A stretch of DNA of 43,325 bases, the filler included, from Jimgerdemannia flammicorona (Eukaryota), in assembly GCA_003990765.1 (NCBI GenBank). It is 2 parts of 2 records of this genome, joined end to end, with 100 filler letters (N's around TTAATTAATTAA, not from the genome) between each part and the next. Parts side by side here need not be neighbours in the genome. Positions count along the whole stretch, not along the records: positions 21,715 to 43,325 come from RBNJ01001423.1; 1 more part is not named here. One strand, written 5' to 3'. The position numbers and the translations under genes are program-made. Under the pieces are notes generated by a model. The model was not told where the DNA came from, made no database searches, and was given only the letters and a program-made list of their open reading frames with translations. Within the stretch, counting starts at the first letter, position 1; each line of letters opens with the position of its first letter. This document shows, in pieces, positions 1,326-42,666 of the stretch.

Positions 1326-1417
1326 TCACTTAATAAGATAATATATAAAAATATAATATACTGAGCATAATTACAAAATGACTATAAATATACTAAAAGA
1401 ATGCTATCTATCTATAC

Positions 1418-6279: not shown

Positions 6280-6282
<3 letters not shown>

Positions 6283-6345
<63 letters not shown>

Positions 6346-11544: not shown

Positions 11545-11757
11545 ATAGATGCCATTACTACTGAGTGCTGCTTATATATTTATATTAAAATAGAGACTTC
11601 TTATTATCAATTTAAAAGAGATATCTAATTACAAATTGACAGTTATCTAAGTCTCCAGCCCAATCAGTATTATATACACCAGATAGTTATATTTTATTAT
11701 CCTTATCTTTACTACTTTTGCTCAATTTACTGAAAGTGAACATATAGTATATATACT

Positions 11758-15380: not shown

Positions 15381-15410
15381 GGATGAGATCGATAAATAAC
15401 AGTATTTCTT

Positions 15411-17635: not shown

Positions 17636-17914
17636 ATCTACTACAGCTATATTTGATATCTTAGTATAGTATATATATTTAAAGAATTATATTATAGTCA
17701 CTTAGTGCTAGTAGGGCTCATAATCTTTATTATAAATATAGAGTAGATACTAAAAAAGAGTAGGAAAAAAGAGAAGTGATATTTATTATTTCAGATAGTA
17801 TATATTTATATATTAGAATTAGTGATATAATTAAAAATAATATAGTTATACATATATAAGCTATATATAAGTTTCAAATCATCAAGATATAATAATAATA
17901 GAAATTTTAATATA

Positions 17915-18678: not shown

Positions 18679-18920
18679 AAAATTGTATATCATAAGATAG
18701 CAAATTATATATCATGAGATAGCAATTGTATATTACAGGATAGCAAATCATATATTGTAAGATAGCTAATCATATATTGTGGGATGGCAAATTATATATT
18801 ACAGGATAGTAAACTATATGTCATGAGATGGCAAATCATATATCATAGAACAGTAAATCATATGTCATAGGATGGCAAATTATATATTATAGGATAGTAA
18901 ATTATATATATTGAGATAGC
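18679..18920. repeat. Tandem array of about 11 x 22-bp units (CAAATYATATRTYAYRRGATRG)
   Basis: Head-to-tail units without spacers. One additional isolated unit at about 18610-18632. Confidence 0.9.
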
Positions 18921-18927
18921 AACTCAA

Positions 18928-20428
18928 TATATAGGTACATAACTTCTATTCCATCAGTTTTATGTCATTTCATCAGTAATATATGAAATATATGACTTAG
19001 GCTTTTTGAATAAATCACTTTGGTTAGCAGCTAGAACTTCTCTAGTTTATATACTATACTGATGAACATGGGTGTGAGCCAGAGCACCAAAATGAGTATC
19101 TCTACAATGGCTCCTCAGTAATGGAAAATGCAGTCTCATTATAAGAGATGCTTGCTAATAGTGATATTGAAGTTCTTTCTAGTGACAGAAGGTAATTACA
19201 AAAATGGCATCTGCCTAGATATTCAAGACAATTATGAAGTCCTCCATGATGATAGAAGACAATTATAACAAAGGTGCCCACACAGATATTCAAGGTAATT
19301 ACAAGTTCTCTTAGGCAGCAGGCAAAGTTATCTCTAGTATTAAGACAATTATAAAGCCCTTCCAAGTGGTCAAGGTACAAAGTCCTCTCTGATGGCAGAG
19401 ATTCTCTACTAGGTATTAGAGATAGCAATTATGATAATAAGGATACCTGTCAATAAGGCTGATGAAACTAGTATATATGAGACAAGTAATAAGATCAATA
19501 GAAATAAACCTAAACCTAAAGTATGGATATAGTAAATAAAGCCAGTATAGACAACAAGGTCAAAAGTATGGACAAAAGTACAGATGAGGTAAATGCCAAT
19601 AAGGTCCAAAGTATAGATAATAATGACAACTATATCAACCAGGAATAACACCTATATCTAGAGTGAGTACTACTAACAACATCAGTAGCATGGATACTAC
19701 CAATATCAGCAATATAGATATCACCAACAATATCAGCAGCATAGATACTAACAATAATATCAGTAGCATGAGTACTGCTAACAATATCTAGTGAATATAT
19801 CAATATAGCTAATAATAATAAAGATAACATCTGATTAATAGATTTTGGCACAATATAGTATATGATACCATACTATATATACTAGGAACAATAACAGTCA
19901 GCACTAACAATAACATACATTTCAAAAGACATGAGAATAGCAATAGCTATAGTAATAGTATTAGATTAAGTAGGAGTATATAGTCATCTGGTAAAGTCTA
20001 ATAGCTAATCAGACACTTTTTAGGCTATAAAAAGCCTATATATTTGCATATATATTGACATCCCTCATTTATGAGCAGATTACATATGTTATATTTTGTA
20101 GATATTTTAGATATTTTGGAATACTTTTTGACTCATGAAAATTCCTTTGATATAGGATTTTATAATTGTAATTCTGGGTTATATATAGTTCTAGTTTTTT
20201 ATATATATTGTATTGCTCTTTTATTCTAGTTTGTATTCTTCTTTTTTTTAGATATAGTTGATAGTTTTTTGTTTTGTTTTAGTATACATATCCCTTTGAG
20301 TAGAAGTGTTGAAAGTAACTTGATATATAGGTACATGACTTTACATCATATACCATTCTATCAGTTTTATGTCATTCCATCAGTAATATGTAAAATACAC
20401 AACTTAGGCTTTTTTGAATAAATCACTT
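18928..20428 (+). other. ~100-bp direct repeats (18928-19020, 20324-20428) flanking a degenerate low-complexity coding-like segment
   Basis: TATATAGGTACAT...ATCAGTTTTATGTCATT...ACTTAGGCTTTTTGAATAAATCACTT occurs twice. The internal 24-27-bp repeats translate as N/S/T-rich NISSMDTTN-like units (~19670-19800). Confidence 0.55.
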
Positions 20429-21714: not shown

Positions 21715-22208
21715 AACAAACTCTAAGTCCTACAGATTTTATTAGAAGAGAACCTAAACTATATAGGCCAAAACCACCCCTCACTCTCTCCTAAATATTG
21801 CATTCTCATTAACCTAGGTTTACTATTATCTAATAGCTAGATATAGCAGAGCTTATTATAGCCTATACCTTATTCTGTATACTATACTCTCCCTACTACT
21901 AGAGAAAACAACTATATGTCAATAACTAAAAGTATATATATATATATAATCTCAACATATATAAGACTATGCTAGAGTTAGATAACAAAGTCTCCACTAT
22001 CCCAAATAGAGTAATAGATAAAGAAAAAACTCTCCAAAAGATATAGAATAGTAGGTAGAATCTAGTTCTCTCTAATGGAGTGAGTGAAGAACTTATATAT
22101 AAGATAGAAGAAAACTTCTAATACTCTACTACTCAAGCCTGTAAGCTTTGATTATATTACTATATCAGCTCTTAATTCTAGTTAAGTATAGCCTAAATAT
22201 GTACCTAA

Positions 22209-23773
22209 TGTAACAGTGATCTCAGAATAATGATATCAGCATAGAAGACAGTCTTTTCTTACAAGCCACCAGATTGGAACACAAGAAGATCATATGGTAT
22301 ATAAGATGAGCAATGATGACCAACTGTGAGTCATTGTAACCACAGTATAAGCATCTTGAGGAATATAAAAGAAGGATCAAGGAACTACAGTAATAGCAAC
22401 CAATAAGACCCACTAATCTCAAAATAGCTCAAAGACTCACTACAAATAAAATATCTGCTGCTCACCAAACCTCAAGGTCAAGGAACTACCAAGGTATCTT
22501 AGTTGAAAAGAGGATGTTCCAAGACATCAGAAGAGCCATGAGGACCTGCTTAAGAAGGACTTCTAGTGTCAATCTGGGTACTAGTAATTCTTATCACTAT
22601 ATTCTCTATTACTGTAAAATGGAAACAAGGATCACTATTGCTACTGAATGTCTCCAAATATGGTAGAAGTATGAAATAGGAAACCTTCTCTGCTGAGAGT
22701 TTCTACAGGCCAGCACTTAAGAGCTACAAGATGCTACTCCCATAGATATATACAAAATAAGGATAGCTAAGAAGATCCATCAGATCTTCAGGCATACACC
22801 ATAGTCAATCTCCAACTTGGAGTATGTTAGAGTCTCAGATTTCAGAGACCTGTCATTCTGCCATATCAATATACTAGAAGCCAGGGTGGCTACAGAAGCC
22901 CAGTCCACTATCACCCTTAATAGTGATGAAGTAGAAGACTTCTGGTATCTCATCCTTTAGGACAACTCAGACCAATTCCTGCAAGAATTGATCTCAGTAT
23001 TCCAAGGCCCAAGCATCCAGGTTAGATCCCCCCAAGACCCTACATTTTTTCCTTATTTTGTGGAAGAGAATCTCATAGATTAGAGAGCCCCTGATTTCTC
23101 TACTATCAAATGTGATAATATTATCAGCAATGATGTCATCTTGCATGACATATGTGAGATATATGATGAAGCATGCAAAGTATACAAAATGTATGACCTA
23201 CATGATGATAATGATGAGACAGATAAGATGTTTGCAGACTTCATCTTCTTTAAAGACATCTTGATCTCTAATGATGAAACCTCTATAGTCTTGAACATTC
23301 TGCTCTAAGTCCTTTGGTTATACTGAATAATACCAGCACCAGTATTCTGATGTAATACTGAATAATGCCAGCACCAGTATTCTGATGTGATACTGAATTA
23401 TACCAGTATTCTGAACCTATATAACCATCAGTGCTGACCCTGAAACTTAGTAGTTTTTTCTGTTCTGGTATTTTATTTTAGTTATTGAAATTTATATTTA
23501 GCTTTATATCTTAGTAACCATTGAATTATATTTTGTATAAATACCCCTCTTATTTTTTCTGAAATAAAGTTAGTTCCAGTTCACTTATATATAATTTCTT
23601 GCAAGCAATCTAAAAGATAATAAGACAGTTTAAAGATAAGAAGTTTGAGGACTATAAGACCTTGAGAAGGCACTCTAATAAGAACTTACTTATAACAAAC
23701 TTAAGTTAGTCTAAGAGATATATCTTGAAGAGAATCTGGCATATTTGAAGGACTCAGTGACCACTACATAATA
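22209..23773 (+). mobile_element. 1.57-kb solo LTR containing an internal ORF (copy B)
   Basis: TGTAACAGTG...CATAATA with 4-bp TSD CTAA (22205-22208, 23774-23777). The LINE 3' region resumes on both sides. TATAAAA 22364, TATAAATA 23536, AATAAA 23563; 35-bp tandem repeats at 23322-23412. Confidence 0.88.
22451..23308 (+). pseudogene. LTR-encoded accessory ORF (copy B)
   Basis: ATA (from ATG) TCT GCT GCT CAC CAA..., ATECLQIW*KYEIG..., AKKIHQIFRH..., FLQELISVFQGPSIQV..., MFADFIFFKD...VLNILL*. Contains stops and frameshifts. Confidence 0.82.
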
Positions 23774-23974
23774 CTAACTAAGATAGTCTTGAGTTCTCCA
23801 ATAATCTCAAATAACTAGAGTCTAATCTTATATATCACCAAGAGCTATCAAAAGTGATATCTACTACTTAACTACTTTACATTAATTAGAAAGTCTCACT
23901 GATATAGTATTTGTATCAGTTCTAATAACTATCACTAGTCTGGTATCTGACTGATCTATTATAATTACTTTTCT

Positions 23975-23975
<1 letters not shown>

Positions 23976-24043
<68 letters not shown>

Positions 24044-24052
24044 GTTATATAC
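23976..24052 (-). mobile_element. Minimal retro-insertion: poly(A)65 plus 12 nt
   Basis: T65 followed by ATAGTTATATAC, flanked by a 14-bp TSD TAATTACT(T/C)TTCTG (23962-23975, 24053-24066). The empty site is visible in the paralogous LINE copy at about 7025-7040. Confidence 0.82.
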
Positions 24053-26995
24053 TAATTACTCTTCTGCTTATCTATGATAGCTATCTCTCTTTTTATTTCA
24101 ATACTACCTAAAAAACAGTTATCTATATCAAAACTATACTCACCAAAAAGCTTACTAAAGCTCAGAAGACTTTATCACAGATATCAAGGATCTGTAGGTA
24201 ACCTATACTAGTACTTAATATCTAAGATCAGCTAACTCTCTATATAACTTATAATATACTGAGATAATACCTTATTGATGATAGTAAAAGGAAGAAGATA
24301 CTATACTAAAAACAGATATTCTTCAAATATAGCTAAAGATATGTATTAGAAACTATAAAAGAATAGAGAAAGTACTAATCTGATACTAATAAAGGGCAAC
24401 TTATCATTATTGTCTCTCTTTTATAGATACAGCAAACAAACCTAAAATAGAGAGAGTAAAAGTTATAGAAAAGAGACTTAGAAGATTATTTATCAAAATT
24501 TTATAACTAATATAGTAGCAGAGAAAGAGGCTGAGCACTAGGTCTCTTTATTAACTAATTTATAACAAATATATAGTTTTCATATCATTATTAGTAGCTC
24601 CAACTCAGCTCTATTCTACTCTACTCTACCTTAATATACTCTCTCTCTCCCATCTCTACTTTCTTAAAAACTATTAAATTATTAACTATCTCAATCTATC
24701 TATTACTTCTCTCATATCTCTTCTATCAAATATCAATAATAATCTTCTTAAAAACTTCACTCCTTCTACTAGTCTGATAGAATATCTACTATCAATCTCT
24801 CCCATCTTATCATTCTTTCTTCCAAAATCATCTACCTTCTATTTTTGAATATATATAACTAGTATCTAGCTAGCTCCATCAATACTATTAATACTCACCC
24901 AATAGTAAACTATTTATTACCAATATACTCTATCAACTACTCTCTAAGTCATCTTATCTTCTCTTCTCTCCACTATCTCACTATCTTTTAAAGTTATTTT
25001 TCTTATAATATTTTGATTCAAAGTAGTAATTATAGATAATAATATTAAATCTATTGATGATTCTCATAGCTTCTTTAAGAGAGCTTAGTTCTTTTAGTCT
25101 GATCTTAACTTATATATTCTCTTTTAGACCTTAGATATAGTAGTCTATTTTTTTATCTTTTGTAATATTAGGTAGTTTTAAATAAATTATATATTATAGA
25201 TTTATATACTTGATGTTTTTTTTTTATAGTCTCATGAACTTTGCTATTTATTATCAGTCTATTAAATATAAATATAGTACTCTATTCTACTACTCAATCC
25301 CCCTAGAGAGACCCCCCCTCCACACTCTTATACTTGAAGGTTACCTTATTCTTTACTACTATAACTCTCTCCCTATTCTATCTACAAATTTTCTCTAATA
25401 AATAATACCAGTAACCTCTCTGCAGTAGACCCCATTCCAGTCATCAGTCTATCAAGACATCTACTATCAACTCTTCTCACCTTGTCAGTTACTCTCTTAA
25501 ACCTAATCACCTCTCTTTCTCAAAAACAAATAGCCAGTATCTAGCTAATTCCACTTATATAGCTAAAACTCAATCAATAGTGAGCTACTCATTTTCAATC
25601 CCCCTTATCAATCTATCTTACAAATTATCCCATTGACCCCTCTTATTATCCCCCCTTCTCACAATATCTAATCTATTCTCAACTACTAACCAAAAGTCTT
25701 CAAGTATCTCATACTCTCTCAGCCAATGTTCTGGTATCTACACAAACCCCCCTTTCTATTCTATATTATAATACTCTTCACAATCAAATTGTCTACCCTC
25801 TATAAGATGTTCTGACTGAAAGTTAAATATGACATTTCTCCTCAGCAAGCACTATCAGACTATCCAGAACTTAGATAGCAGCTATCTTTATATCTCAGTA
25901 CTTTAGACCCAAACTCTATTCTAGTTTCATCTCTTTTCAATATTAGCTATCTGCCAATTACTGAGTCATATATCTTATTCCAACCTTCTCTGATACTCTA
26001 CTTCATTACTAATATTAAAGTCAATTAGTGAAGTACCCCTCAATAATACTTGATCTCATCTTCATATTACTGAACCCCATGGTATCTCTCTCTCAGCCCT
26101 CTGCTAGTGAAGACCAATATGGTGCACCCCATCAACTACTCTCTACCAGAAGCCCTTGTACTGTATGTACCTACTATTATAAAGCCCAACCAAAGACAGT
26201 AGATCCCCAGTAGAGTCTCTCAGTGAGAACCTCATCTCTCAGATCTTTTTTATCAGAGGAACTCAGCTACTATCCCTAAATTCTACAGCTCTCTTCAGTC
26301 ACTAAGCTCTCAAACAATATAGCCTTTTTAGGAAGTCAACCAGTCCAAGGCCTCCTCTATCCACTGATAATGACAAAATTTCCCAGTTAATCTGACTCTG
26401 TCTCTTAGCCCAGATCTAACCTTTAGCTAGCTTTAATAGTCTCTTCACTACCCAGGCTAGAAAGTACTAAATATTATAGCTTTAGCAGCCAGTAGATATT
26501 CAAGATTGAAACACAACCTATCAAAGAGATGTGAAAGCCTCTCTAGCTCTGCAGGATCTCTCTCCAAATAGTCACCTGCTGTTCTTACTAAATTCTAGGT
26601 AGAACTGACCTATAGACTGAAAGATAGATGTCTAAGTATCATATAGTATCTCTAATAGGGACAATTGCTCTAATGACATCTCCTCCTACTAAACTATTGT
26701 CCAACACCATCATTTCATACTTATGTCAGTTGAGTTTAGCCTCAGAATATACCTCATATCACTCTACCATCTTCTAAAGTTCTTTGATATCTACAACTGA
26801 TCTCAGTTCAACTACTATATTATCTGCAAATACTTCAACCTTTCAGATAATTCCAAATACTGATAGTTTCTCTACTTTTTGCCAAATCCTATCCATCAAT
26901 AGCTTTAGGGACAGAGCATATAAAATAGGAGACAGCAGATCTCCCTGAGAAATACTTCTATCTAGAGGGAATACTACCCTCTGATGACTATTATA

Positions 26996-27578
26996 TAGTA
27001 CTCCTAATGAGTCAATTTAATTTGGATTGATTTTGGATTGAATCCCATCTGGATCAACTTGGATGGAATTTGAATTCCATCTAAATGGATTCAAATCAAC
27101 CATTGTTTTGATTTCCAAATTAGACAATTAAATATTTATATCAATAATTTGATAAATAATCATCTAAATTTGATAATCTTGGTATCATTTGAAAGCCCTT
27201 AATAAGACCTACCTAATGATACTAAGAATATTGAGATTAGATTATACATTGCTGAGTTATAAAGGAAAATGTCTGAATTACCAATTTTGGAAATTATTCA
27301 ATTTGCTGATTTTGGAAATTCTATCAAATAGAACATTTTCCTTAATATCTCAGCAACATATAATCTGATTTTAATATTTTTGGTATCATTAGGAAGGTCT
27401 GATTAAGGGCTTTCAAATAATACTAAGATTATTAAATTTGGATGATTATTTATCAAGTTATTGATATAAACATTTAATTGTCTAATTTAGAAATCAAAAT
27501 AATGGTTAATTTGAATCAATCCAGATGGAATCCAGATGGGATTCAAATTTCATCTAGATTGACTTATTTAGAGCACTA
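26996..27578. mobile_element. hAT-family palindromic MITE (583 bp) inserted in LINE RT
   Basis: TIRs TAGTACTCC.../...GAGCACTA, 8-bp TSD C(T/C)ATTATA (26988-26995, 27579-27586), ~270-bp inverted arms. Confidence 0.92.
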
Positions 27579-29063
27579 CCATTATATATAAGTGCTACTC
27601 TATGCTCTTTCAGTAGACTGATTATTACTACTCAGAACTGCTGAGGAACTCTGATCCTATCTAGTATCTTTACCAACCAGATCCACCTGACCCAGTTATA
27701 GGCCTTCTTTTAATCTAGGAAGACTAATCTCTCATCTAGCCTACAGGCTTAAGTTCTTTCAATAATACTATAAACCTAAGCTATACTATTCCTAATGAGC
27801 CAGCCCCCAACAAAATCTCATTGCTCCTTATCTAAGATTTGCTGAACTATCTTCTGTAGTCTCACAATAACTATTTTGGTAACTAACTTTCTATCCATAT
27901 CCAGGAATATAATAGATCTCCAGTTCTTCCATCCTCTCTTCTGTCCTTATTCTTATACAACAGTACTATCAGTCCTAGATCCTGCTCTCTCACCTACTTC
28001 TCTAACTATAACACTAAGTTATAAAGTACTATCATCTCTCCCATCACCTTAGAGATTCTCACCATCTTATTTCAGAAGTCTTAGAGCAGACCATTCTCTC
28101 TAGATATAGTATCTAGCATAGTCATAGTAAGAACCTAGTGAATCTCCTCTGAACTAATATTACCAAACTATCAAACCTATCTACTTATGGTAAGTGTTAA
28201 TCCTCTAAGATGTATTCAATAGAAGCAGCATTGGTTTTGTCCTTCTCTTTACTCTACAGATCACTCTACCTCTTCTTTAGTAAGTCTAATATGTCTTGTG
28301 ATCTATGTATCAGCAGACTATTAGAATTCAGTACTCTCTCCTATCTCTGCCTCACTCTTTTTATCTGCAGAATTCTTAAGAGATACTTAGAGGACCTCCT
28401 CCCCTCCTCCAGCCCCTACCAGTATAGCTATATAGTTATTCCTCACATCAATATCTCCTCCTCCTCTCTCAATATCTGCTATAATTTAGTGATCTCTAGC
28501 TTTACTCATATCAATCTCTAGTTCTCAACTCCCTCTAAGGCCAAAAGACCTGCCCAATTCTCCTGAAGTCAGGCCAATCTAGCAGAGGCCCAGATCACTC
28601 TTCTCCTCTTCTACTCTGTCAGTCTCACTCTAGTAAACCCTAGTAGCCTTCTTTAACCTCACCTATTAAATACTCACTAGAGTACTCTTATAGACCCAAC
28701 CCTCCACTCTCTATCTAATATTCCCAGCCCAAGTATCTCACAGTCTCTTCTCAGTTAATAAAGAGGAATTAAGGTACTAATATCTAGGCCATCCCCACTT
28801 TTCCCAAACTGACCATACCTCAATAAGCCTCAATAGTCTGACTATAGATACCACTCAACCTCCAGAGACTTCCAGACATCCAGACCCCAGCAATCAGCTA
28901 TCAGTATCTAGTCAATCCTAGTCCCCAGACCATCTGCCTAATAGATATAGATCATTCTATCTCTCCACATTACTCAACCAGTATCTATCAGAGAGCTAAT
29001 GTAATAGAATGGATGAACAATGAACAGATGGGATGCAATGAACGACAAGCAATCATGTGACCC

Positions 29064-31316
29064 TTCTGCGAGAACACCAGCTCTATGCCAAGATGAGCAA
29101 GTGTAAATTCTACCAAGACCAGATTGAGTACTTAGGATACATTATCTCTGCTGAAGGTATCAACGTGGACCCCTGAAAGGTATCAGTCCTCAAGAATATT
29201 CCTATTCCTACTACCCTCAAGCTACTCCAGTGCTTTCTGGGTATTACTAGTTATTACTGAAGGTTTATCCAAGGATACTCTGCTATTGTAGCCCCATTGA
29301 TCAGCCTGGTCCATAAAGGAGTAAACATCAAAGCTGAATGGACCCCCAAATGCACCCTGGCTATGGACCATCTCAAGAGACTCCTTATCGAGGCTCCAGT
29401 GCTAATTGCACCTGATCCTACCAGACCATTCACTCTGACCACAGATGCCTCTGACATTGCTATTGGAGCAGTGCTCAGCCAAGAAGACCGCCCAGTGGCC
29501 TACTTTTCACAGAAGCTCAAGCCAGCTGAGATCTGATATACCACCCATGAGAAGGAACTCCTGGCTATTATCACTGCACTCCAGGAATGGTGCCATTTCC
29601 TCTTTGGACAGCCATTTGTGGCCTATACTGATCACCATGCACTGCGGTATATTTACACAGCCTATGCTAACCCATAGACAAGCCCGCTAGATGGAAATCA
29701 TTGCCAACTTTGATATAGAAATCAAGTATATCCCAGGCAAAACCAACCGTGTGGCTGATGGTTTCTCCAGATACATGGAAGACAAGCTTGTCTTCATGGT
29801 TGAAGTAATTAGAGACCTTACCCAAATGATCAAGGAGGGCTACCAGCAAGACAGCCCCCTGATGAATTTCCTTCAATTCTGCCAAGACCCAGAGGCCAAG
29901 ATTCCAGAACCCATGAGACAAATGGCCAAGAGATTCACCTACCATGATGGACTTATCTACAGGGACCATGATAGAGTGGTTGTACCTAACAATGACACTC
30001 TGCGACTCAAAATCATGCAGGAACTCCATGATACTCTTGCAGCAGGACACTTTGGTTTTGAAAAGACCTACAACCTCCTCTTAAGAGAGTTCTACTGGCC
30101 AAAGATGACCAAGAATATCAAAGACTTTGTGGCCTCATGCGAGATGTGCCAAAGGTTCAAAAGTAGTAACAAGCTACCAGCAGGACTCCTGCAACCCTTG
30201 CCTATCCTGAGCCACAATTGGGACCAGATTGCAATGGACTTCATTGTCCAACTTCCCAAGACCAAGGCAGAATGAGATGCCATCATGGTATTCATGGACC
30301 GCCTAAGTAAACAAGCCCATTTTGCACCCACCAAGACCACTACTACAGCACCAGAGATTGCCAAGATCTTTCTCAACCAAGTATTCAGACTATATGGCAT
30401 GCCTAGCACTATTGTATCTGACTGAGATGCTAAGTTCACAAGTAATTTCTGGAAGGCATTTTTCTCCCTCCATGGAACCAAGCTGAAGTTCTCTACTGCT
30501 TACCACCCTCAGACTGATGGTCAAACCAAGCAAACCAACAGGACTCTCAAACAGATGCTTAGTATCTTCTGCTGTTATAAGAAAAATAATTAGAACAAGT
30601 ACCTAGCCCATGCTGAGTTTGCCTACAACAATAGTCAGCAAACCTCCACAAAGAAGACTCCATTCTTCCTGAACCATGGTCAACACCCAAGGACCCCTAG
30701 TACTACCGTGAAATCAGCAGTCCCAGCAGCCCAAGATCTGGCTGAGACCATTTCTGACCTTACGCAAATGACAAGAGATGCTCTCATAGAAGCACAAGAC
30801 TATCAGACCAAGTACGCAAACTTGAAGCAAAGAGAAGCCTCCTACAATATTGGTGACAAAGTCATGCTTAGAACAGACTACCTCCACCCAGACACTCTGG
30901 CACAACAACCAGCCAAGAAACTCCATGCTAGAAGAATTGGACCATATAAGATCATGGAAAAAATCAGTGAAGTCAACTACAAGTTGCAACTTCCCCACAA
31001 TATTTGAGTATACCCAGTGTTCCATATCAGCCAATTGGTGGACTACTATGAGAACCCATTCTCCGAGTATACAGTTCCACCACCACCCCCAATTAGGATC
31101 AATGATCACAAGGAATTCAAAATTGAGGAAGTACTTGACCACAAGGTCCACAAATATCCCAAAACAGTCAAGCGCTTTTTCCTGATCAAGTGGAAGGGTT
31201 ACCCCACCCATGATACTACCTGGGAAAAAGAAGAAGCCCTGAAGAATACACGTGAAGCCCTCCAGGACTACATGGAAATACTCACCCCCCAGCAAAGGAA
31301 GGAACTACAGCTCTAA
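29064..31316 (+). pseudogene. pol: pol remnant: RT C-terminus, RNase H, integrase, chromodomain
   Basis: [53 protein letters not shown]...GHFG...CEMCQ, MDFI, SD*DAKFTS, RIGPYKI and EEVLDHK...FLIKWKGYPTHDTTWE. Confidence 0.95.
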
Positions 31317-31885
31317 GTATAGGAGCACACAGCAAATGGAAAGATACCATATATTTTTATCTGGAAACATATAATACCAAATATTGCGAAAAAAGAAACA
31401 CTATGGATAACCAATAAGAAGATACCCGAGCAAAAGAACAATCTAATACAATACAGCAAAACATATTTAAACAACTCTATTTCATGCCATCTGTGTCATC
31501 TCTGCTGGATGATGACGGACACTTCATGTGAAACTTAGGAAAGCCGACAATGTCAAAACCAGTCTAAGTCCATCCACGTGACAGATATTGTTACTAAGAA
31601 TTGCCTCAGATTACAAGAAAGTCTATTTCTAAGAGGTTTGAACCCCCAGCTGCGACAATGGGAGCCCTTGCCCTAGACAAGGATGGCCAGTCCTCGCAAA
31701 TGCGCCAACCAGACAAAAAAAAAGTGGACCAAGACCTGTTAACCCTGTGTAACCACAAATAGGTGATGAGATCTTTGAAATCAAGATTTTCTCATGTGAC
31801 CAGCACATGCTCCACTTACAGCACAGGTCATACATTTTGCCAGAAAGCATGACCAAAGGAAGGTCACATCAGACAGGTGAATAAG

Positions 31886-31893
31886 TATAAATA
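31886..31893 (+). promoter_or_regulatory. Putative TATA box of the accessory ORF
   Basis: GTATAAATACCC, the same context as the LTR TATA at 33143, located 72 nt upstream of the ATG at 31958. Confidence 0.55.
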
Positions 31894-31957
31894 CCCAAGG
31901 CAAGAATACCCCGCAACTCTCATCCCCCTTTCCTCACAAAGAAAAGACAAGACAAGA

Positions 31958-32788
31958 ATGCCTGCCACCCACCACTAAACTGCCTGTCATAGCCAGCCCC
32001 TCCCAAGCCAGGTTGACTGCCTCTTTGGACACATCCAGGTTGCTATCCAAGGAAGGAACTGCCACTCAGAGGCCCTTAACCTCTTCAGCCCAGACCTAGG
32101 ACAGTATGTCCTTGACTGCTATGAAATTATTGAAAGGGCCTACCTCGCTACCAGCTGCCTGAAAATCTGGCACGAATATGAAATCGGTCACCAGCTTCTC
32201 TAACATACAAGTGGCCTACCCACGGACCAGGTCTCTGACTGGACTCACCTAGACAGGTATGAGCAAAGACTTGCCAAGAAGGTCCATCAAATCATGCGCC
32301 ATGCATCCTTCGTGATTCCCAACCTCAACTATATACAACTGAAGGACTTCCAGAACCTCTCTTTCCCTGAGGTCAATGCCCTAGAAGTCAAGGTTGCCCA
32401 AGAGGCCAACTCCTGGATTGCCCTCAAGTCTACTGACTATGAACCCTACTGGAGCCCCCTCCTGAATGACAACTCTGACCAATGGCTCCAAGGTCTCTCT
32501 GACCTCTTTGAAGGACCACCTATCCAAATGGATATTCCCAGGCATGAAGATCAAGAGCCCTACTTGGATGGTCCCAACTGCATCAGATGGAGAATCCCTA
32601 CACCAGCACCTATTCCAATGCAAGGACCATTTGCAGACCTCATTGACTTCTCCATTCTGGACAGCAAGCTATCTGCAATCACCACCCCCCCTGCCCTTGA
32701 AGAAGATGGTAATGACCCTGAGGAGGATTCCCCACCTTTTTCTCCTCTGGTTCTCAATTTCTCAATCAATGAAGACATTGATTTCTAA
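31958..32788 (+). pseudogene. Accessory ORF of unknown function (276 codons, two in-frame TAA) between pol and PPT
   Basis: Single frame from ATG 31958 (MPATHH*) to TAA 32786-32788, which overlaps the PPT. Internal TAA at 31976 and 32201 only. It includes track ORF 32294-32788. End-to-end homology to the solo-LTR ORFs. Confidence 0.88.
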
Positions 32789-32799
32789 GGGGGGAAGAA

Positions 32800-33592
32800 T
32801 GTAATAGAATGGACAAATGATGAACAGATGGGACACAATGAATGACAAGTGATCACATGACCCAGCGAGCGATGATGTTATCATACGATTGAGCGCAACA
32901 TATAAATAACGATATAAACGAATGATGCAAATGAATGATGCAGAAAACAATATTTAGCTTATCCCTGACAACCGGTGCTGCAGCAACAGTTGCCACAGCT
33001 GCTGATCATTGCCTAGTAATTGAGGTCCTGATCACAAAGATATTCTTTACCAAAAACTACCTGACAAAGGTCGTGATCATAAACCTTATTATAGTTACCA
33101 AATTAGTCACTCATACTTAGTCAGAAATCATGGACCAACTTGTATAAATACCCCCCAGTTTCCATCCGAAATAAAGCAGTTTTAGTTCAGTCCTTGATAT
33201 AAGAATCAAGTCCCCCCCACACACACACATTCCCCTGAGTCTTAGTAATGACATCTAAGTGACTCTAGTGTTTCTGACTAAACTCCAGAAGTCTAGCTAA
33301 CTTCTGCCAGAACTGAGACCGGTATATAAATCCCCAAAGACTTAAGTAAACCCATTGAACCTGAATTCCAAGGTGAATTCAGTCTGTGTACAGCAAAGAA
33401 CAAGACTCTCAAAATAGGGCACAAGAGAAAGACCTTTGAAAGATAAGGCACTGCCACTACAACTACTTATAAGTGAGTGCTTCCTCAAACTGAAGGCTTC
33501 TTGATACACATTGTATACTAAGTCCCTAAGTAATAGTCCACTTCTCTAATTATCCAAAGAATAAGAGAGGGGTAGAAGTGAGAGTTATTACA
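32800..33592 (+). repeat. 3' LTR of the chromovirus (793 bp)
   Basis: Follows the PPT, has TG...CA termini with a 7-bp inverted repeat, TATAAATA 33143 and AATAAA 33170. Confidence 0.9.
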
Positions 33593-36500
33593 GCTAAGTT
33601 GCTCTACCTTCTTCCAACTCTCTAGACTGCCACACCTACCTCCTGCATTCCTCTCTCTATCTGTTCTGTCCAATTGTACCATATGAATTATATTGAAGTC
33701 TCTCTCAAGTATCTCCACTCTTACCTCCACAAATACTCCACTATCTAAAAGACTATCAATCTACTCTACATGCTTGCCCCTAACTACAGAGCAGTAGCAA
33801 GATCTAACTACAATTGACTCTTATCTAGACTGATGCCACTCTCTCCAAACCATATGATTTCTCTAGTTTCTGTTATCATATATTTTTCTATACTCTTTTT
33901 ACACCAGCAGCCCAATCTTGCTATTCTAGACTATAGCTCTACTCTATTCTCTTATCTACTCCTGTTGCTCAAGATCTCCCTCACATTATATATCTTATAG
34001 AAGAAAAAGATCAGTCTCTAATTCCTTCAACTAAGTAAAAATATTATATTACCTCCCAGAACCCCTCAGGCCATTTACATTTAATGAAAAAAATATTAGT
34101 TGTACTGTTCATAGAAAATAATATTGAAGTAGATATATTCTCTTCACAACTCTATATTCACTTTCTCTCTAGTTAAGTTTAATCTATACTTAGTAGTAGT
34201 CTCTACTCCCTCAACCTACTTAGCTTTCAGTTCAATCAAAAGCTCATCTATTACTATATCATCCTTCAATTTCATCTCCTCTTAGTACTTCAAGTATACC
34301 TCTTATCAAATTTCCAATCCATGTCTCCATTTCTACCAGAAGACTGTATGCTCTCTAGCTATTACTACCATCTCTGTCTCTCTCACAATATCTACCTTAT
34401 AACTCTCCTCATCCAAATATACTACTAGTACCTCCTTCACCAGGGCCTCTACAACATCTTCTCTCTACAGAATTCTTATTCAGTACTCCTTACTGATAAC
34501 TCACAAGTCTACATCCTCTAGCTCCTCAGCTACTAAGTTGTTCATCATCTGATATATCTACTGCAAGTCTCCAATTTTCTTACTCTCAGGGGTCACTAGT
34601 TAGCCAGTCTCAAGCATTACAGTATCTGCTCTAGTACTTGCAAACCCATCTCACTCCTCCTCAGGGATATCTACCAGTTCCTCCTCTCCAATCTTAACTA
34701 TCTGCTCTCTACTTGTTATCTCAGATACTCTAAATTAAACATAGCGAGCCCCCAATATCTTCACATTCTCACCAGCTATTGGCTGGACATCCTGAGTCTT
34801 TCTTTCTATATCCTCACTCTCCTTCCATATCTCTAGTATGCTATTATTATAGAAAGTCTAATCTCTTATCTCCTGGCTCCAACTCTCAGCCTTAGCACTC
34901 CTCTTCTCCTTCTCACTAGCTCAGATACTCTCCTGAGCACTCCCAGTAGTCTTGTCCAAACTCAGCAATACCTTCTCTGTCTTCTTCAAACTAGCTAGCA
35001 GCTCTCTCTGTCTTACCCAAATATGCTTTCCATTTACTACCTCTAAGTGATTTAAGTCTATATAAGTCTTCTATATCTTAGCCTACTATTTCACTGCCCC
35101 ACTGAGCTCTTTCAGCACCTCTACCAAATCCTCCTCCTTCTATAAACTCCTCTTCACTCTCATTACCTTGCAGATAAATGCCCCCCATATCAGCACTAAG
35201 GACTAGTCTCTCAACTTCTCTATAACCTTCTTTTCAGCCAGCTAGAGCCTGATATCCACATCTCTCATCCTGAAAGAAGTCCCCTCCCAGACCTAGAAAC
35301 CAATATTAACTACCTTGCCATACTCAGCCATGGTCTTCTCTACTCTCTTCCTCATCTTAGTTATTATTATAGACACTCTCTTCACTAGTAGCTAGACTAT
35401 TCTGGGGTCCCATCTCAGACAACAAGTCATCAGAACCACTACTGCATCTACTGTTAGCCCTATCTTCAATGTCTCCTCCAAGAGAGTAGCCTCCTCAAAG
35501 CCCACCTCTACTCTCTTAAGCTTCTTTAGGAACTTCACTGAGGCAGCTCCAGTCATCTGCTCAAAATTAGCCTCAAAATTATCTTTACTATCACTGCTAA
35601 GCCTCAGAAGTACAGTATAATTATAAACTCCAAGATCAACTTTTTGAGTAATAGAGTCACTGCCAGATCCATTATACCATCAGCCAGGTTCTCTAGCCCC
35701 TACTGGTCTCTCTGTATAGTACCACTATCAGCTATTATATTTCTTCTTATTTGCCATTACACCTCTATCAGCAGTTATACTACTACTCTTAGCCACAGCT
35801 CCTCCTGTCCTTATACTTGCTTCCTAAGACAAATAGCCTCCCATCCTCCCTAGAGTAGCCTTGTCTTTTCTCTCAGCTATATCAGTCCAAGTATCTGTCA
35901 GCTATCTACTATTCTTTATCTTGTCAGCAAAGCTTAATGGTCCAGTCCTGTCTCTATTCTCACCAGATATCAATTGCTCTTCAGACCCTTCTCTGCCATT
36001 CACATCTCCAAAAACCCCCATTCTCAAACTATAACTCCTCTCTACATATTGCTAGCCAAATGCCCTAGATCTATCTAACTCAGCATATCTATTAGAACTC
36101 TTGCTTGAAGATATGTTGATAGTATCTTTTCTCTAAATTGTTATAAAAAGTATTATATAATATAAATTATATCAGAGAAAATAGCTATTGATCTGTATAT
36201 ACTTGGTGTTTACTAGTTTATTTCTAACTAATTTAATAGTATTAGTAGACTTAAACTACTTATAGAGAGCTTTCTTAAATATTATAATTCTTATTTCTCA
36301 GAGATATAATAGTTATAATATAATTATACTACTAAATAATTATATTTTCTTAGAAAAGTATAGTAATAAATTAAATTTATATATATATTTATTTTTATTT
36401 TTATAAGTTTAAAGTACTAAACTAATTAAAAGATTTAAATATTAGTAGACAGTCTTTTTTAATAATTATTAAAAGTATCTGACTTAAGTAGCTTAAAGCT

Positions 36501-36789: not shown

Positions 36790-37746
36790 TAGTACTCCAA
36801 ATAAGTTAATTCAATCTAGATTGAATTCAGATTGATTTGGATTGAATCTTATCTAGATCAACTTAGATAGAAAATAAGCTGATTCAGATTAATTCAAATT
36901 GAATATTGTTTTAATTTTCAAATTAGATAATTAAATATTTACATCAATAACTTGATATATAATTATTTAATTTTGATAATTATAGTGTTATTTTAAAGCT
37001 CTTAATAAGGTCTTTCTAATAATATCAAGAATATTGAAATTAGATCATATATTGCTGAGTCATCAAGAAAAATATCCAACTTACTAATTTTGGAAATTAT
37101 TCAACTTTGCTGATTTTGGAAATTTCTTCAAAAGAATATTTTCCTTAATAGTTTAGCAATATATTATCTGATTTTAATATTCTTGATATTATTAGAAAGG
37201 TCTTATTAAGGGCTTTTGAATAGTGCTCCTAACAAATAAAATCAAGGTCTAATTCAATTTAAATTTTGATTTGAACCTAAATTTTTAAAATTCAATAACT
37301 TGACAGAAAAATATCCAAATTTAATGATCTTTATTATACTGGATTTGCCTTATCAGGGCAAATCCAATAAGCTAAAATTCATCAAATTTGGATATATTTT
37401 CACCAAGTTATTGTATTTTAAAGTTTGACTTTCAATTTCAAATTAAATTAGACCTCAATTCAATTTAAATGATTCAAATTAGATCTCTATTCAAATTGAA
37501 AAATCTCCAATTTAATTTGATTTGAATTGATTTGATTTATTTGAGAGCACTACTTTTAAATAATACTATGATTATTAAAATTAGATAATTATATATATAT
37601 CAAGTTATTAATATAAATATTTAATTATCTAATTTTGAAAATTAAAACAATGTTTGATTTAAATTGATCTGGTTTCTATCTGAGTTGATCCAGATCAACT
37701 TAAATCTGATTCAAATTTAATCTGGATCAACTTGTTCAGAGTACTA
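36790..37746. mobile_element. hAT-family palindromic MITE (same family as 26996-27578) containing a nested MITE
   Basis: TAGTACTCC...GAGTACTA termini and a perfect 8-bp TSD AGTATAAT (36782-36789, 37747-37754). Confidence 0.92.
37221..37552. mobile_element. Nested 332-bp hAT MITE of a second subfamily
   Basis: TAGTGCTCC...GAGCACTA termini, 8-bp TSD CTTTT(G/A)AA (37213-37220, 37553-37560), internally palindromic. Confidence 0.9.
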
Positions 37747-38099
37747 AGTATAATAGTTATATAAGATAAAGTAATTAAATCTGAAAGATTTTTAGTAGAT
37801 CTAAAGTAGCTTAAAGTGATACTTATAGATTTAAGTAGTTTTAAGGATTTCTAGAGAAAATAAGCTAAGTTTTAAGTAGAGAAAGAGGATATTTATATAA
37901 AATCTGAAAAAAAAAACTGAAAAAATCTTAGAAATAAAAAGAAAAGCTAAGAAAATAGTTCTTAGTAAAGATAACTAATAAAATTTTATAATATTCTAAA
38001 GTATTCTATAATTAGCTAAAATAAGATACTTAGTATTGAAAAAATAATAATAAGAATGTTCTAGTAAAGTCTTAGTACTAAGAGAGGATTTTTAAGTAT

Positions 38100-41000
38100 T
38101 ATAATATAGCAGATACATAACTATATAAGTATGTTGGATTTCTGTATTTTGAAAACTTAATCTTCTTTGACTCTGCAGAGTCTTCAGAATATAGAGATGA
38201 GTGAGTTCAAAGTATATCTGTCTGTATACTTACTAGTTCTTTTACTTTTTCTTTACTTTAAACTATTTTAATCTAAAGTTTATTTATTTATTTACTTTAG
38301 ATACTGGAGATATTTATATAAATTTACTAGCTATAAGGTGGTTAAGTTATGACTATATTTTCTATAATCTTTAATATCTGTTAAATCTTTAATAATTATC
38401 AAAACTTTAACATTTGTAAATATTTTAACATTTGCAAATACTTTAATATTTGTTAAAGTTTCTATATTTATAAAATATAACTACTATTTGTAAGGCTACA
38501 CTATATTTGGGAATTGGATTTAGATATTTTTTTTTTATTATTATTCAGGTACTATAATCAAATATCTATTTCTCAGATTTAAATTACTAATTTAGATCAA
38601 CCATCACAACTTTCTCCTGAATAGGTAATTCATTTCTGAAATATCTCATTTATTCAAACTCTCAAGTTTTCATAATTTATATCTCTTTATACTATATAAT
38701 TTGTATCATTAAGTTCTCCTAATAGTATCTCTTGATATATTCAAAGTCTTCTGAGACTATTCCTCAGAAATGGGTTAGAGCTGACTCATTATCTTTAAAT
38801 AACTTATTAACTTATTTGGCAATTGTAATCTGAGTATGAGAGAACTGGTACTCTCTAATCCAGTCTTCTTTTCTTATCTCTGGCTATGAGTTTAGTAGCT
38901 GTCCCAACTTGAAGTATTTTTGAAACTTGATCTAGTTCTGATAGACCTTGAAATATGAGATTTATATCAAGTATATCTGGACTATACTCTGGATGCTATT
39001 AAAGGATTCTTCTATAATTAATAGTTCAGTAGTATACTATTGTCTTTTTATAACTTATTATATAGCACTAGTGATCTTGAGGATTATAACAGTACTTTGT
39101 TAATTAGTTATGATACTTCTTGAGTTGGTTTCAGTAAATGGTAGTGAGGATAATTGTACTTAAGAGTTTTCATAACCAAAAGATAGTTTCTTTTATATCT
39201 TATATCAAGTAAGATTCTTCTCACTTAGGCTCTAGCTTTCATAACTATAAAGCTTCTACTATATTCTAATATATCAGAACTTTGTCTCCTATCTTGATAA
39301 TCTCTAGAGACTTGTAAATCTTTTCTATATTATTCTATTATAGTGTCTGTACCTTGATTATATAATCCTCAGCCTTTTTTCTGATTTGGTATAGTCTCTA
39401 TATCTCTGTATCCACACATTTCTATATAGTATCTCTATTGAATTATAAGATTCCTTAAGAACTTTCTTTTCTGAATAGCATTTCTCAAAGGGTGAAATGG
39501 GTGCTTTGTAATCAGATATCTTAGAGAGTAGATAATACTATTAGCAGATAGTGATCTCAGTTTTCATAATTATTATAGATCTTGGCAATGATGTTCTTGA
39601 GAGTCTTATTGATCCTTTCTGCTTATCTATTTTTCTGAAAGTGATAGGCTGTAGTCTGAATGTGCTGGATATTATACTTCTTGTAGAAAATCTCAAAGAA
39701 CTAGTTTACAAATTTTGTTTCTTTATCTGTAGTTACTTATGATGAGGTCTTGAATCAGCAGATTATTTCTTTATAAAAGAAATCAGCAATTGACTGTACA
39801 TTAACTTCTTTGAGAGATTCTATCTCTATCCATTTCATAAAAAGGTCTATGATAATAATAATATATCAGTTGCCAGTCAAAGTCAAGAGTAGAGGGTCAA
39901 TTATATCTATTGTAATATATATAAAGAGTACTAGTTCTATATATACTAATTCTGAGGTCTGATTTATTGATCTTGTTTCTATTTTTGATATTTATCACAG
40001 ATCTTAACAAATTGTCTAATATCTTCCTCCATTCTTAACTACTACATTGTTCTTCTTACTTTATTATATATATTTGTTCCTTCTAGATAGCTAAATTTAT
40101 ATACTGATTTCATTACTTATTCCTTCTTATGTTCAGATATAACTAATAGTTTCCTTTTTTTAATATTTCTCCATTAGTCTCAAATTACTTCTGATAATCA
40201 TTTGTGTCCATTTTTCCAGATATTCACTGTTCCAGATAGTTAGTAATTCTATAGTAGAATTCCTTATTTATAGTTGATTTGCTGGTTGGGAGTCCTTTAG
40301 AATGTCTATGAGAGAGTGTCTGTATTGGTATTAGTTCTTCTGGAGCAGTGTATGATAGTTATATTATAAGCTTACAACTTTATAATCTATCTAGAATAGA
40401 TTTCTTTGGGTGCCCAGTAGTCAGTAGCCAAGTGAGGGCTGAGTGGTCTGTCTGAATAGTGAAGTATCTTTCTACAAGATAGTAGTAGAACTTCTCTATA
40501 GTCCAGATAACTATAAGATATTTCAACTTATAGGATTTATACTCTTTTTCAACTTCTCAGATTTCTTAGCTGAGATATACATATGATTATATATTCTACT
40601 TTATCTTTCTTCTAGACCAGAACTACTCCTAGTTTTTGTATACTTACATCTATCTATAGGATAAATTCCTAAGTCCAATCTGGTCTTCTAAGAATAGGTA
40701 CTTGGGTCAGCCTGATCTTAAGCTTATCAAATGCTTTCTGTTGTCTACTGGTCTATTAGAACTTGACATTATTCTTATTGAGTTTATAGATTGGGTCTAT
40801 AATATTTGATAAATCTATAGTAGTAAGAGATGAGTCTCATAAAGACTTAGGCTTCAGTAACTGTGGTAGGTCTTGAGTATACTACTACTGCTTGAATCTT
40901 GAGGAGATCTGTATGTATTCTATCTCAGTTAATGATATGACTAAGGTAAAAGATTTCAATTTCTACAAATTTATACTTCTTTAGCTTGATATATAAGCTA

Positions 41001-42666
41001 TACTATCTTAGCTTCTTTATTATCTACTGAATATACTATAGATATTCTTTAGCTATCTTACTAAAATGATAATATTATCTATATAGACTATTATCTATCT
41101 TCTTATATTATAGTAGAAGATTTTATTTATTATTTTCTGAAAGCTTACTGGTATATATATATTCTGAATATCATTTTAGATATAGGTTTTATCTGAAGTG
41201 ATAAAGACTGACTTCTCACTTACTACTTCTGTTAGGATAATTTGATAGAATCCTGAATATAAGTCCAAGGTACTATAGTACTGTACTTTATCTTCTAAGG
41301 TTACAAGGATATTACTGATGAGAGGCAGTAGCTGGCAATCCTTCTTGGTAATCAGGTTGAGCTTTTTATAATCAGTATAGAGTCTTGAGATAAATTCTTC
41401 TGACTTGCTTTTTTTTTTTGAAGCTAGTATAACTGGTAAAGCCCAAGGGCTACTGGCTTCTTTGATGATACTGACTTCTTCCATCTGCTTGATTTTTTCT
41501 CTGAGCCATTCACAGTAAACTAGTGGTATTGGCCTTACTTTTTGGTAGATTGGTTTGGTGTCTCTTATATCTATATCATAATAGTAGTGTGGGGTCTTTC
41601 TCTTGATATCCTTAAAGTCTATAGCTAGGATATCCTCAAATTTATAGAGTATCTTCTTGAGTTTCTTCTTGAGTAGAAATTTATCTCCAATAGTATAGCT
41701 ATACTTGTTTGTAATTTTCTCCTTCTTGTAATCTAGTTTGGTAATCTTAATATTAGTGAATACTTCTCTTTCTGTAGATCTGAATCCTTTCTTTCCTCTT
41801 TCTGTTTCTTCTAACTTCTTGACTTTTATAATCTTTGGCTGAAGAACTGAAAAGATCAATGTCTATATCAATTGATTCTTCTCCTTAATTGAAAATAGAA
41901 TCATAGAATTGTAGTTTCTAACAATAAGTAATATCTCTCTAATATAATCTGAATTAATAACTCCTCCTTTAATTGTAATCTCACTTTTAGTCAGGCTACT
42001 TTTTGTCTTAAAAATTCCAATATAGTCTTTTGAAATAGTTATCTCTAGACTGGTTACTAGTAGGGTAGTTATCTGAGGCTTAAGTATAGTTTTTTTTACT
42101 GTAGTGATATCTATTTTAGCTGTATTTTCTGACTTATATTCTGATAGAACTACATCAGGGTAGATCCTCCAAATCTTGACCTTGATTTCTTCTTCATTAT
42201 CACTGTCTTTCAGAAGAGCTAGTAGTTCATTATCCTCTTTCTCCTCCTTCTTTTCTTTTGCCTGCTTTTTGAGAGTCTTTTATCTTTTTTTATAGTAGAT
42301 CTTCTTGATACTATTAGTATACTGATAGTAATTATTGATATGCTCTATATAGTATATCTTGATTCTATAAGAACAGACTCCTTGTAGTACATATCTTTCT
42401 ATAATCTTCTTATACTAGTCTTCTTCACTAATTTATCTAACCTTCTTCTTCTTTTTTTGAATAGTTACTATATAGGCTTCCTCTTGCTCACTTTCTTCTT
42501 TCTCTATCTCAGATAGTACTTCTTTATTAATATTGATGGGAATTCACATCTTCTGATCTCAGTAGATGATCTGTATCTTCTGGACATTCAGATTAATTAT
42601 TGCTCTAGCTTTATGAAGCTACTGATTACCAATAAGGATATTATAATTAATAGTATTAGTTATAAT
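38100..42666 (-). mobile_element. Second dUTPase-Gypsy copy, 5'-truncated within protease
   Basis: Colinear with 1418-5966. 3' LTR at 38100-38608 (TGTGATGG start), dUTPase at about 41765-42190, RT/RH/IN relics. Homology stops at about 42666. Confidence 0.92.
38609..39111 (-). pseudogene. Accessory ORF downstream of integrase, dUTPase-Gypsy copy 2
   Basis: ATA (possibly from ATG) overlaps the pol stop. In-frame KFQKYFKLGQLLNS*PEIRKEDWIREYQFSHTQITIAK*VNKLFKDNESALTHF*GIVSEDFEYI. Confidence 0.68.

Follow-up and report, generated by a model that had tools for sequence, protein, structure and literature searches.

Sense additional open reading frames (ORFs) between pol and the 3′ long terminal repeat (LTR) of retrotransposons are established in plants and insects, where most are env-like, in the passages of PMC7264820 that treat them. 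For fungi, the legend of Figure 3 in Novikova et al. (2010, PMC2864245) marks an 'add. ORF' with unknown function in some chromoviruses. Here we describe ORF3, the 3′ ORF (31958–32788, plus strand) of a decayed chromovirus-type Ty3/Gypsy element from Jimgerdemannia flammicorona (assembly GCA_003990765.1). It lies in a stretch of 43,325 nucleotides, filler included, the whole of which was analysed and is called the window. The chromovirus-type lineage has in ORF3 a genuine accessory gene that codes for protein; the ORF3 family is real, unnamed and carried in two element contexts. This bears out the original prediction, made from the DNA of the window, of an undescribed protein family between pol and the 3′ LTR.

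ORF3 resembles the sense additional ORFs (aORF-3S), as far as those passages describe them, in its place directly ahead of the polypurine tract and 3′ LTR, in its orientation and in its conservation across copies and lineages. It differs from the env-like members in having no membrane segment, signal peptide, sequence match or fold match, and from the class in that its host is probably fungal and a second lineage appears to have the gene inside the LTR. ORF3 also seems to have a TATA box of its own, whereas the env-like additional ORF of barley Bagy2 is expressed as a spliced mRNA, according to a passage of PMC7264820. With the 'add. ORF' of Novikova et al. it shares the character of an extra ORF in a fungal chromodomain Gypsy element, a comparison that goes by the description in the legend. 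Boty-like Gypsy elements of Botrytis cinerea carry brtn, an extra gene with unknown function, and other Gypsy families of this fungus have predicted additional ORFs (both in passages of PMC8365987). ORF3 lies in sense to pol and is set apart from brtn by described orientation, not by sequence. The brtn gene is reportedly antisense, as the title of Zhao et al. 2011 has it.

Apart from brtn and the 'add. ORF', the literature covered here, with subscription journals, Repbase and GyDB outside its scope, describes neither a family of sense accessory ORFs for the chromoviruses of fungi nor an ORF located in a fungal LTR, and names no family that matches ORF3. The retrieved passages of PMC3248453, PMC10787394 and PMC9603552 contain nothing relevant to ORF3.

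ORF3 and its homologues in the window

The frame at 31958–32788 reads as originally written; codons 7 and 82 are in-frame TAA stops. Intact relatives have glutamine at both of these codons, and position 31976 is C in all aligned contigs of three runs, which restores CAA at the first. A tblastn search with ORF3 finds exactly two other places in the window, one in each of two 1.57-kb LTR-like units, soloA and soloB. The soloA match (11291–10653, minus strand) has an E value of 1.3e-38 with 38% identity over 214 amino acids and one gap, and the soloB match (22514–23110, plus strand) has an E value of 5e-38 with 39% identity over 199 amino acids and is gap-free. The homology of the chromovirus ORF to the ORF in both units, which had been proposed from an end-to-end alignment, is far beyond chance. 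The C-terminal FADLIDF or FTDLISF, the acidic run and the VLN that were listed among the matching segments are present in both element types.

In DNA comparison, the similarity of soloB to the 3′ end of the chromovirus is confined to 51 nt at the TATA/poly(A) box of the LTR (E 7e-5) and two short stretches within the ORF, with E values of 0.01 and 0.13. The statement that similarity is clear in protein and weak in DNA holds, with a protein E value of 1e-38 against near-nil DNA matches.

Relatives in public data and coding constraint

A word-index search returned P0001, a protein of 214 amino acids with 61% identity. A HMMER profile of the window copies and P0001 (groups 1 and 2 below) was searched against 1.84 billion representatives at E ≤ 1e-3 and matched six proteins, five of which were judged real clusters: P0001 (8.8e-112), P0002 (6.9e-102), P0003 (9.5e-73), P0004 (1.5e-33) and P0005 (1.9e-15), the last matched by a profile without any group-3 sequence. 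The sixth, P0006, is a 698-residue ankyrin-repeat protein that matched with an E value of 1.3e-7 in nine stretches and was dropped as a repeat-driven false match. P0007 and P0008 came from another profile search. Group 1 comprises window ORF3, P0001, P0003 and the ORF of a metagenome contig (L001); group 2 comprises the homologues in both solo units, P0002 and P0004; and group 3 comprises P0005, P0007 and P0008. Identity to P0001 across the family runs from 95% down to 29%. P0001–P0005, P0007 and P0008 are all without a Pfam domain and are called 'hypothetical protein' at most. Intact relatives have ORFs of 247, 291, 325 and 342 amino acids at 29–62% identity.

The L001 contig (1535 nt) holds an intact ORF of 291 amino acids at 376–1251, in the same layout as the window: TATAAA, about 80 nt, ATG to stop, polypurine tract and TGTAAT. 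On its 3′ side, a C-terminus in DIDF and the stop are followed by the polypurine tract AAGGAGGGAGGAT and then by the LTR start TGTAATAAG. Window ORF3 and the L001 ORF both end at the polypurine tract, the place of a sense additional ORF, and ORF3 is the last internal gene in the chromovirus/L001 lineage, ending one base before the tract. A related-locus search with a four-row alignment found one locus in metagenome contigs and none in 80 candidate stretches of viral contigs or 74 of genome contigs.

Between ORF3 and the L001 ORF, the ratio of nonsynonymous to synonymous rates (dN/dS) is 0.20, with proportions of differing sites (pN and pS) of 0.24 and 0.64 over 266 codons at 60% amino-acid identity. 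The differences by codon position are 81, 58 and 122. The ratio between soloA and soloB, both decayed, is 0.33. In run X12, a contig of 946 nt spans 31935–32809 with 95 substitutions and zero indels. The low dN/dS, the intact frames and this indel-free relative mean that the ORF3 gene has been kept by selection; the selection on coding that had been suggested from the protein and DNA similarities is supported by the ratio against intact L001 and by the intact ORFs of 247–342 amino acids. If the frame were instead noncoding, with conserved LTR or regulatory sequence giving similar translations by chance, the stops and the frameshift in the window copies would be easily accommodated. This explanation is close to refuted by the protein similarity with DNA similarity almost absent, by the greatest variation at third codon positions, and by the intact ORFs together with the 875-nt X12 relative that has 95 substitutions and no indel.

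A different origin would be a captured host gene or gene fragment that is passively carried, so that its conservation reflects its past in the host. Additional ORFs can arise by transduction in the account given by passages of PMC7264820, and no function is assigned to ORF3. We consider a passive passenger improbable, since transduced genes are usually limited to one or a few copies in the same account, whereas here at least two lineages with unalignable DNA keep the place, the TATA spacing and intact frames. The relatives are also all short stand-alone ORFs on short contigs, without name or Pfam domain. A search of 7,256 candidates for longer or fused forms of 600–2000 amino acids gave none, a result of little weight.

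Structure of the chromovirus that carries ORF3

The element is a 5′-truncated chromovirus remnant (29000–33592) with a 5-bp target duplication, GCTAA, on both sides. Its features are:

28995–28999, 5′ target-site duplication GCTAA, read directly
29000–29063, plus strand, 5′ LTR stub of about 64 nt that matches the 3′ LTR start at 32800 (TGTAATAGAATGG...)
29064–31315, plus strand, pol remnant with the C-terminus of reverse transcriptase (RT), RNase H, integrase zinc and core domains, Tf2-1-type SH3 domain and chromodomain
31313–31315, plus strand, pol stop codon
31886–31893, plus strand, candidate promoter box TATAAATA, 72 nt 5′ of the ORF3 ATG
31920–31937, plus strand, pyrimidine-rich stretch after the TATAAATA box
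31958–32788, plus strand, ORF3, 276 codons with TAA at codons 7 (31976–31978) and 82 (32201–32203)
32788–32799, plus strand, polypurine tract AGGGGGGAAGAA, which overlaps the ORF3 stop and abuts the 3′ LTR
32800–33592, plus strand, 3′ LTR of 793 bp, TG...CA, with TATAAATACCCC at 33143 and AATAAA at 33170
33593–33597, 3′ target-site duplication GCTAA

The 5′ LTR stub is fused straight to the C-terminal part of RT through an internal deletion. In the pol remnant, Pfam finds RT_RNaseH_2 (1.3e-33), Integrase_H2C2 (3.1e-22), rve (2.5e-5, under its cut-off), SH3_Tf2-1 (1.3e-17) and Chromo (1.6e-10) in this order on the plus strand over 29339–31277, the arrangement of a chromovirus. A spacer of 642 nt separates the pol stop from ORF3. 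The LTR is defined by its TGTAATAG...TTATTACA termini, the polypurine tract and the GCTAA flanks, with the 5′ LTR present as the 64-nt stub only.

Contigs of runs X1 (n = 4) and X5 (n = 3) diverge exactly past 33592 into ACT TGGTAGCAG, and this divergence gives independent support for the 3′ LTR end. The sequence ACT TGGTAGCAG looks like a primer-binding site; contigs that continue into it therefore indicate that full-length relatives with a 5′ LTR exist in the X1 and X5 samples. Run X1, a soil metagenome, has 781 contigs on 31300–33600, 132 of which are at least 99% alike, so that in some soil samples close relatives of the chromovirus are common. Most differences are T or A in the window against C or G in the contigs, and the window copy is thus the more decayed of the two.

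The 1.57-kb units

The two units that hold the other window copies of ORF3 are laid out as follows:

22209–23773, plus strand, soloB, 1565 bp, TG...TA, CTAA/CTAA flanks
22364, TATA box of soloB
22451–23308, ORF3 homologue of soloB
23536, second TATAAATACCCC of soloB
23563, AATAAA of soloB
9971–11544, minus strand, soloA, 1574 bp, TA...CA, CTAT/CTAT flanks
11379, TATA box of soloA
11291–10466, ORF3 homologue of soloA
10208, second TATA box of soloA

The soloB homologue is a single frame to the stop at 23308, with an ATA start and several in-frame stops, and the soloA homologue has stops plus one frameshift in the tail. The units are 79% identical and in opposite orientation (the self-comparison spans 9962–11548 and 22205–23782). 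Both start at the same base, TGTAACAG in soloB and TATAACAG in soloA, and their ends coincide at ...CATGACA in soloA and ...CATAATA in soloB. The terminal letters that deviate are transitions, so both were scored as having the TG...CA termini and direct target duplications of solo LTRs. Beyond the 4-bp direct repeats, the flanks of soloA and soloB are unrelated. The order within each unit is TATA, 88 nt, the ORF and then TATAAATACCCC...AAATAAAG about 235 nt before the end. This TATAAATACCCC...AAATAAAG box is common to the 1.57-kb units and the chromovirus LTR.

On the simplest reading, the 1.57-kb units would be solo LTRs of a second family with the ORF3 homologue in the unique 3′ (U3) region, a placement that we infer from the TATA and AATAAA positions and the terminal repeats. 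The second lineage would then have the same gene within an LTR of 1.57 kb, 5′ of the TATA/poly(A) box that belongs to this LTR, and a copy would be present in all LTRs of the family, also in those left as solo LTRs. There are hints that the LTR boundary may have shifted relative to the gene: in a forced upstream alignment that has no statistical support, the solo units begin where the chromovirus (31748) and L001 each have a T[GA]TAAC hexamer. Exchange of the gene between diverse Gypsy lineages, as earlier proposed, is not shown, because the window holds only LTRs of the second family.

The dUTPase-Gypsy element

The original prediction counted a third LTR-retrotransposon family as a carrier, from an ungapped alignment of the ORF3 core with a frame downstream of integrase in a Gypsy element that encodes a dUTPase. 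Elements of this kind are recorded in Postia, Phanerochaete and Tuber in a passage of PMC2864245. The positions concerned are:

about 1415–9409, minus strand, copy 1 of the dUTPase-Gypsy element, with protease, dUTPase, RT and RNase H, and LTRs at 1418–1894 and 8914–9402
38097–42666, copy 2 of the same element
1996–2115, minus strand, stretch aligned to the ORF3 core in the original prediction, homology unsupported

Pfam assigns dUTPase (1.8e-12), RVP_2, RVT_1 and RNase H to the element. The possibility raised by the alignment is that it carries a very decayed third member of the ORF3 family. The matched 30-mer does lie in the analogous place, 3′ of integrase and 5′ of the 3′ LTR, and an EY..G.QL motif stands about 32 codons upstream as in ORF3, albeit in another frame. 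In score, it ranks sixth of the 86,466 30-mers of the window, or third among the 86,463 that are not homologous; above it are the three true copies and two unrelated 30-mers, and the match was chosen after a scan of the whole window. A tblastn search with ORF3 or P0001 leaves the 3′ region of the Gypsy element without a match up to an E value of 10. Under the family hidden Markov model (HMM), the score of the stretch is −0.5 to −0.9 bits, with a domain E value of 16–22 over 432 six-frame segments, and lies below dozens of random matches.

Since decayed copies may be frameshifted, a frameshift-tolerant profile-to-DNA alignment was run on both strands, with 99 bins of 800 nt as the null. Gypsy copy 1 scores 24.1, which 12% of the null bins equal or exceed, and copy 2 scores 19.5, which 57% do; the true ORF3 copies score 470–524. 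Two stop codons also fall at the same frame positions in both Gypsy copies (2115–1996 and 38823–38734, minus strand). These shared stops could mean that the frame was already closed in the common source or that the same sites mutated twice. A third member here is very improbable, and the similarity is a chance resemblance. The claim of three families reduces to two element contexts, the Gypsy match being within noise in the tblastn, HMM, 30-mer and frameshift-tolerant comparisons.

Protein features

The highest Kyte–Doolittle mean over 19 residues in the intact 291-residue relative is 0.66, and its N-terminus, MPALRTNHH, is not hydrophobic. The protein has neither a signal peptide nor a transmembrane segment and, as had been stated, is not env-like. 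Its isoelectric point (pI) is 4.91 overall and 4.05 in the tail after residue 215. AlphaFold2 models of P0003 (eight alignment rows) and P0001 (11 rows) have a mean predicted local distance difference test (pLDDT) of 46.7 and 57.9, respectively. Both show an all-helical body, with helices at about residues 22–35, 51–87, 93–99, 104–117, 121–126, 132–136, 140–153 and 167–188, and an unstructured tail with a pLDDT below 35. The earlier description of a soluble helical protein with an acidic tail agrees with the tail pI and with these weak models.

Near-invariant residues include Y78-E79-I80, A110, H114-Q115, H119, E147, A151, S156, D175 and G190. The tail motifs F-x-[DN]-L-I-x-F and [LV]-L-N-[FI], amid acidic residues, are common to groups 1 and 2. 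These acidic–hydrophobic stretches of the tail may resemble activation domains, SUMO-interaction motifs or Atg8-interaction motifs.

The family, which was not recognized at the outset, is not identified by any Pfam, PDB-sequence, Foldseek, VIA or ESM Atlas match. Pfam finds none in ten members at E ≤ 0.1, and at E ≤ 1 there are two single-member matches (0.13 and 0.18). PDB sequences give zero matches at E ≤ 10, and the best Foldseek E values are 0.47 in the PDB and 0.29 in a viral library. The best Z score in VIA wide is 5.0, from a single long helix over residues 51–102 only, with sub-domain 90–160 not searched alone. In the ESM Atlas, the whole protein scores at most 0.88. Residues 18–215 match a closterovirus coat protein (0.92) and a RegA-like phage translational repressor (0.91), both flagged as probably wrong: there are 140 shared features against at least 170 in typical cases, and the family is shared by one of the ten best matches.

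The all-helical body would suit a helper of replication or of the particle, such as a helical nucleic-acid-binding protein or chaperone in packaging or reverse transcription. A chaperone role is among the proposals for plant sense additional ORFs in a passage of PMC7264820, and those two Atlas clusters are the nearest named ones. Pfam at E ≤ 1 finds neither of their families in the ten members, and an acidic protein would be unusual as a nucleic-acid chaperone. A helper of this kind is therefore unlikely, although we rate it slightly above a captured host gene.

Candidate promoter and proposed role

A TATAAA box lies upstream of the ATG at −72 in window ORF3, −80 in L001 and −88 in both solo units. 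This spacing is kept in four copies in which the surrounding DNA is barely alignable, and L001 has one TATAAA only in its 1535 nt. The X12 contig begins at 31935, 23 nt before the ATG and 42–49 nt past the TATA box, and no X12 contig aligns over 31762–31915; X12 is taken as RNA by guess only. No run recorded as RNA contains the 31300–33600 stretch, and run X23, of raw DNA reads, has zero reads on it. The conserved box leads us to favour, by a small margin, a promoter that belongs to ORF3 itself. From such an internal promoter a subgenomic ORF3 mRNA would be made that ends at the LTR poly(A) site, for which our confidence is likewise a little better than even.

The product is predicted to be soluble and to consist of some 200 residues of helical body followed by a disordered acidic–hydrophobic tail, which contains conserved short motifs and may be a protein-binding or activation module. 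It might act in trans, as an LTR transcriptional activator or an antagonist of host silencing; this step is tentative and is proposed from composition only. Taken as a whole, an accessory gene with its own TATA promoter, just upstream of or inside U3, and with a probably regulatory product is our best explanation, plausible in its entirety while falling somewhat short of an even chance.

Several points weigh against this explanation. X12 is RNA by guess, and contig ends are no proof of a transcript start. TATAAA is frequent in the AT-rich window, with 58 in 43 kb on one strand. The dS between ORF3 and L001 is saturated (1.46), and both window lineages are decayed. The terms LTR and U3 for the second family derive from the termini, the 4-bp flanks and the shared TATA/poly(A) box, in a window without a full-length element of that family, and the units have a 4-bp duplication, whereas that of the chromovirus is 5 bp long. 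The protein models are of low confidence at the mean pLDDT values given above. No family, fold or motif-library match points to function, and no DNA-binding domain or nuclear localization signal was identified in the ORF3 product.

Setting and decay of the window

Self-comparison and region-by-region Pfam scans show that the window is made up of nested, decayed retroelements. The 4.6-kb chromovirus insertion that carries ORF3 splits the second of two copies of a non-LTR retrotransposon. The positions of these and other features are:

13700–17700, plus strand, non-LTR retrotransposon copy 1, RVT_1 E 7e-9
26719–35689, minus strand, non-LTR retrotransposon copy 2, inverted
6342–6831/7025–7510 and 21715–22193/24053–24531, unclassified repeat, 68–70% identical
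6272–6349 and 23965–24050, poly-T runs of 60–85 nt, each adjoining copies of the unclassified repeat
18702–18943, tandem array of a 22-nt unit (repeat finder: eight registers, 88-nt reference, 22-nt spacing)
11758–12617, 27056–27549, 36887–37222 and 37234–37466, foldback-like inverted repeats with arms of 200–350 nt that are 72–86% complementary

The non-LTR retrotransposon has a GGDFNMV motif upstream, presumably the typical motif of an apurinic/apyrimidinic endonuclease, and a very strong strand asymmetry, with a GC skew of up to +0.49. One copy of the unclassified repeat lies within the Gypsy element and the other is split by soloB, and the order of poly-T run and repeat halves is unlike at the two loci. 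The inverted repeats at 27.0–27.5 kb are related to those at 36.8–37.7 kb, and the inverted repeats of the window may be foldback elements or resemble miniature inverted-repeat transposable elements.

CpG is strongly depleted, with an observed-to-expected ratio of 0.06 across the window, 0.02 within the Gypsy element and 0.19 within the chromovirus. The indices for repeat-induced point mutation (RIP) in the window are 1.02 for TpA/ApT and 1.27 for (CpA+TpG)/(ApC+GpT), and TpG and CpA are raised in its younger elements. In nine of the 19 listed T-versus-C differences from related contigs, the next base is G. The decay looks like largely CpG-directed C-to-T change with no clear RIP of the CpA type, because the CpG ratio is 0.06 and the second index is only 1.27.

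Comparison with known systems

Plants and insects have supplied most of the known extra genes in LTR retrotransposons, as env-like or antisense genes, and hardly any of them has a demonstrated function. ORF3 is compact, soluble and selectively conserved, with a likely promoter of its own and, as it appears, two positions relative to the LTR boundary. Even apart from any regulatory role, it represents an unnamed family that annotation pipelines currently miss.

Retroviruses also have genes at the 3′ end or in U3, such as sag of mouse mammary tumour virus (MMTV) and nef of human immunodeficiency virus (HIV), and the foamy-virus tas gene has an internal promoter. ORF3 differs from these accessory genes in that its carrier is a retrotransposon and no virus, and it is not a member of their families, with no sequence or fold relation (Pfam, zero of ten members at E ≤ 0.1; best viral fold E value, 0.29). 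The layout is alike, a small nonstructural gene beside or inside U3 with an apparent promoter of its own, as in tas, and the acidic C-terminal tail would resemble an activation domain in the same comparison. By analogy with complex retroviruses, ORF3 could be a trans-acting regulator expressed from an internal promoter, which would make its carriers 'complex retrotransposons'; we hold this to be doubtful. If true, each solo LTR of the U3 lineage would be a self-contained unit for expression of the regulator, and decayed insertions would keep supplying a factor that aids active relatives. A product that counteracts silencing or activates the LTR would be a rare case of retrovirus-like gene regulation in a fungal transposon. 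The family offers a tractable case for asking how a retrotransposon may gain a regulatory accessory gene and how such a gene may enter U3, a step seen in some retroviruses.

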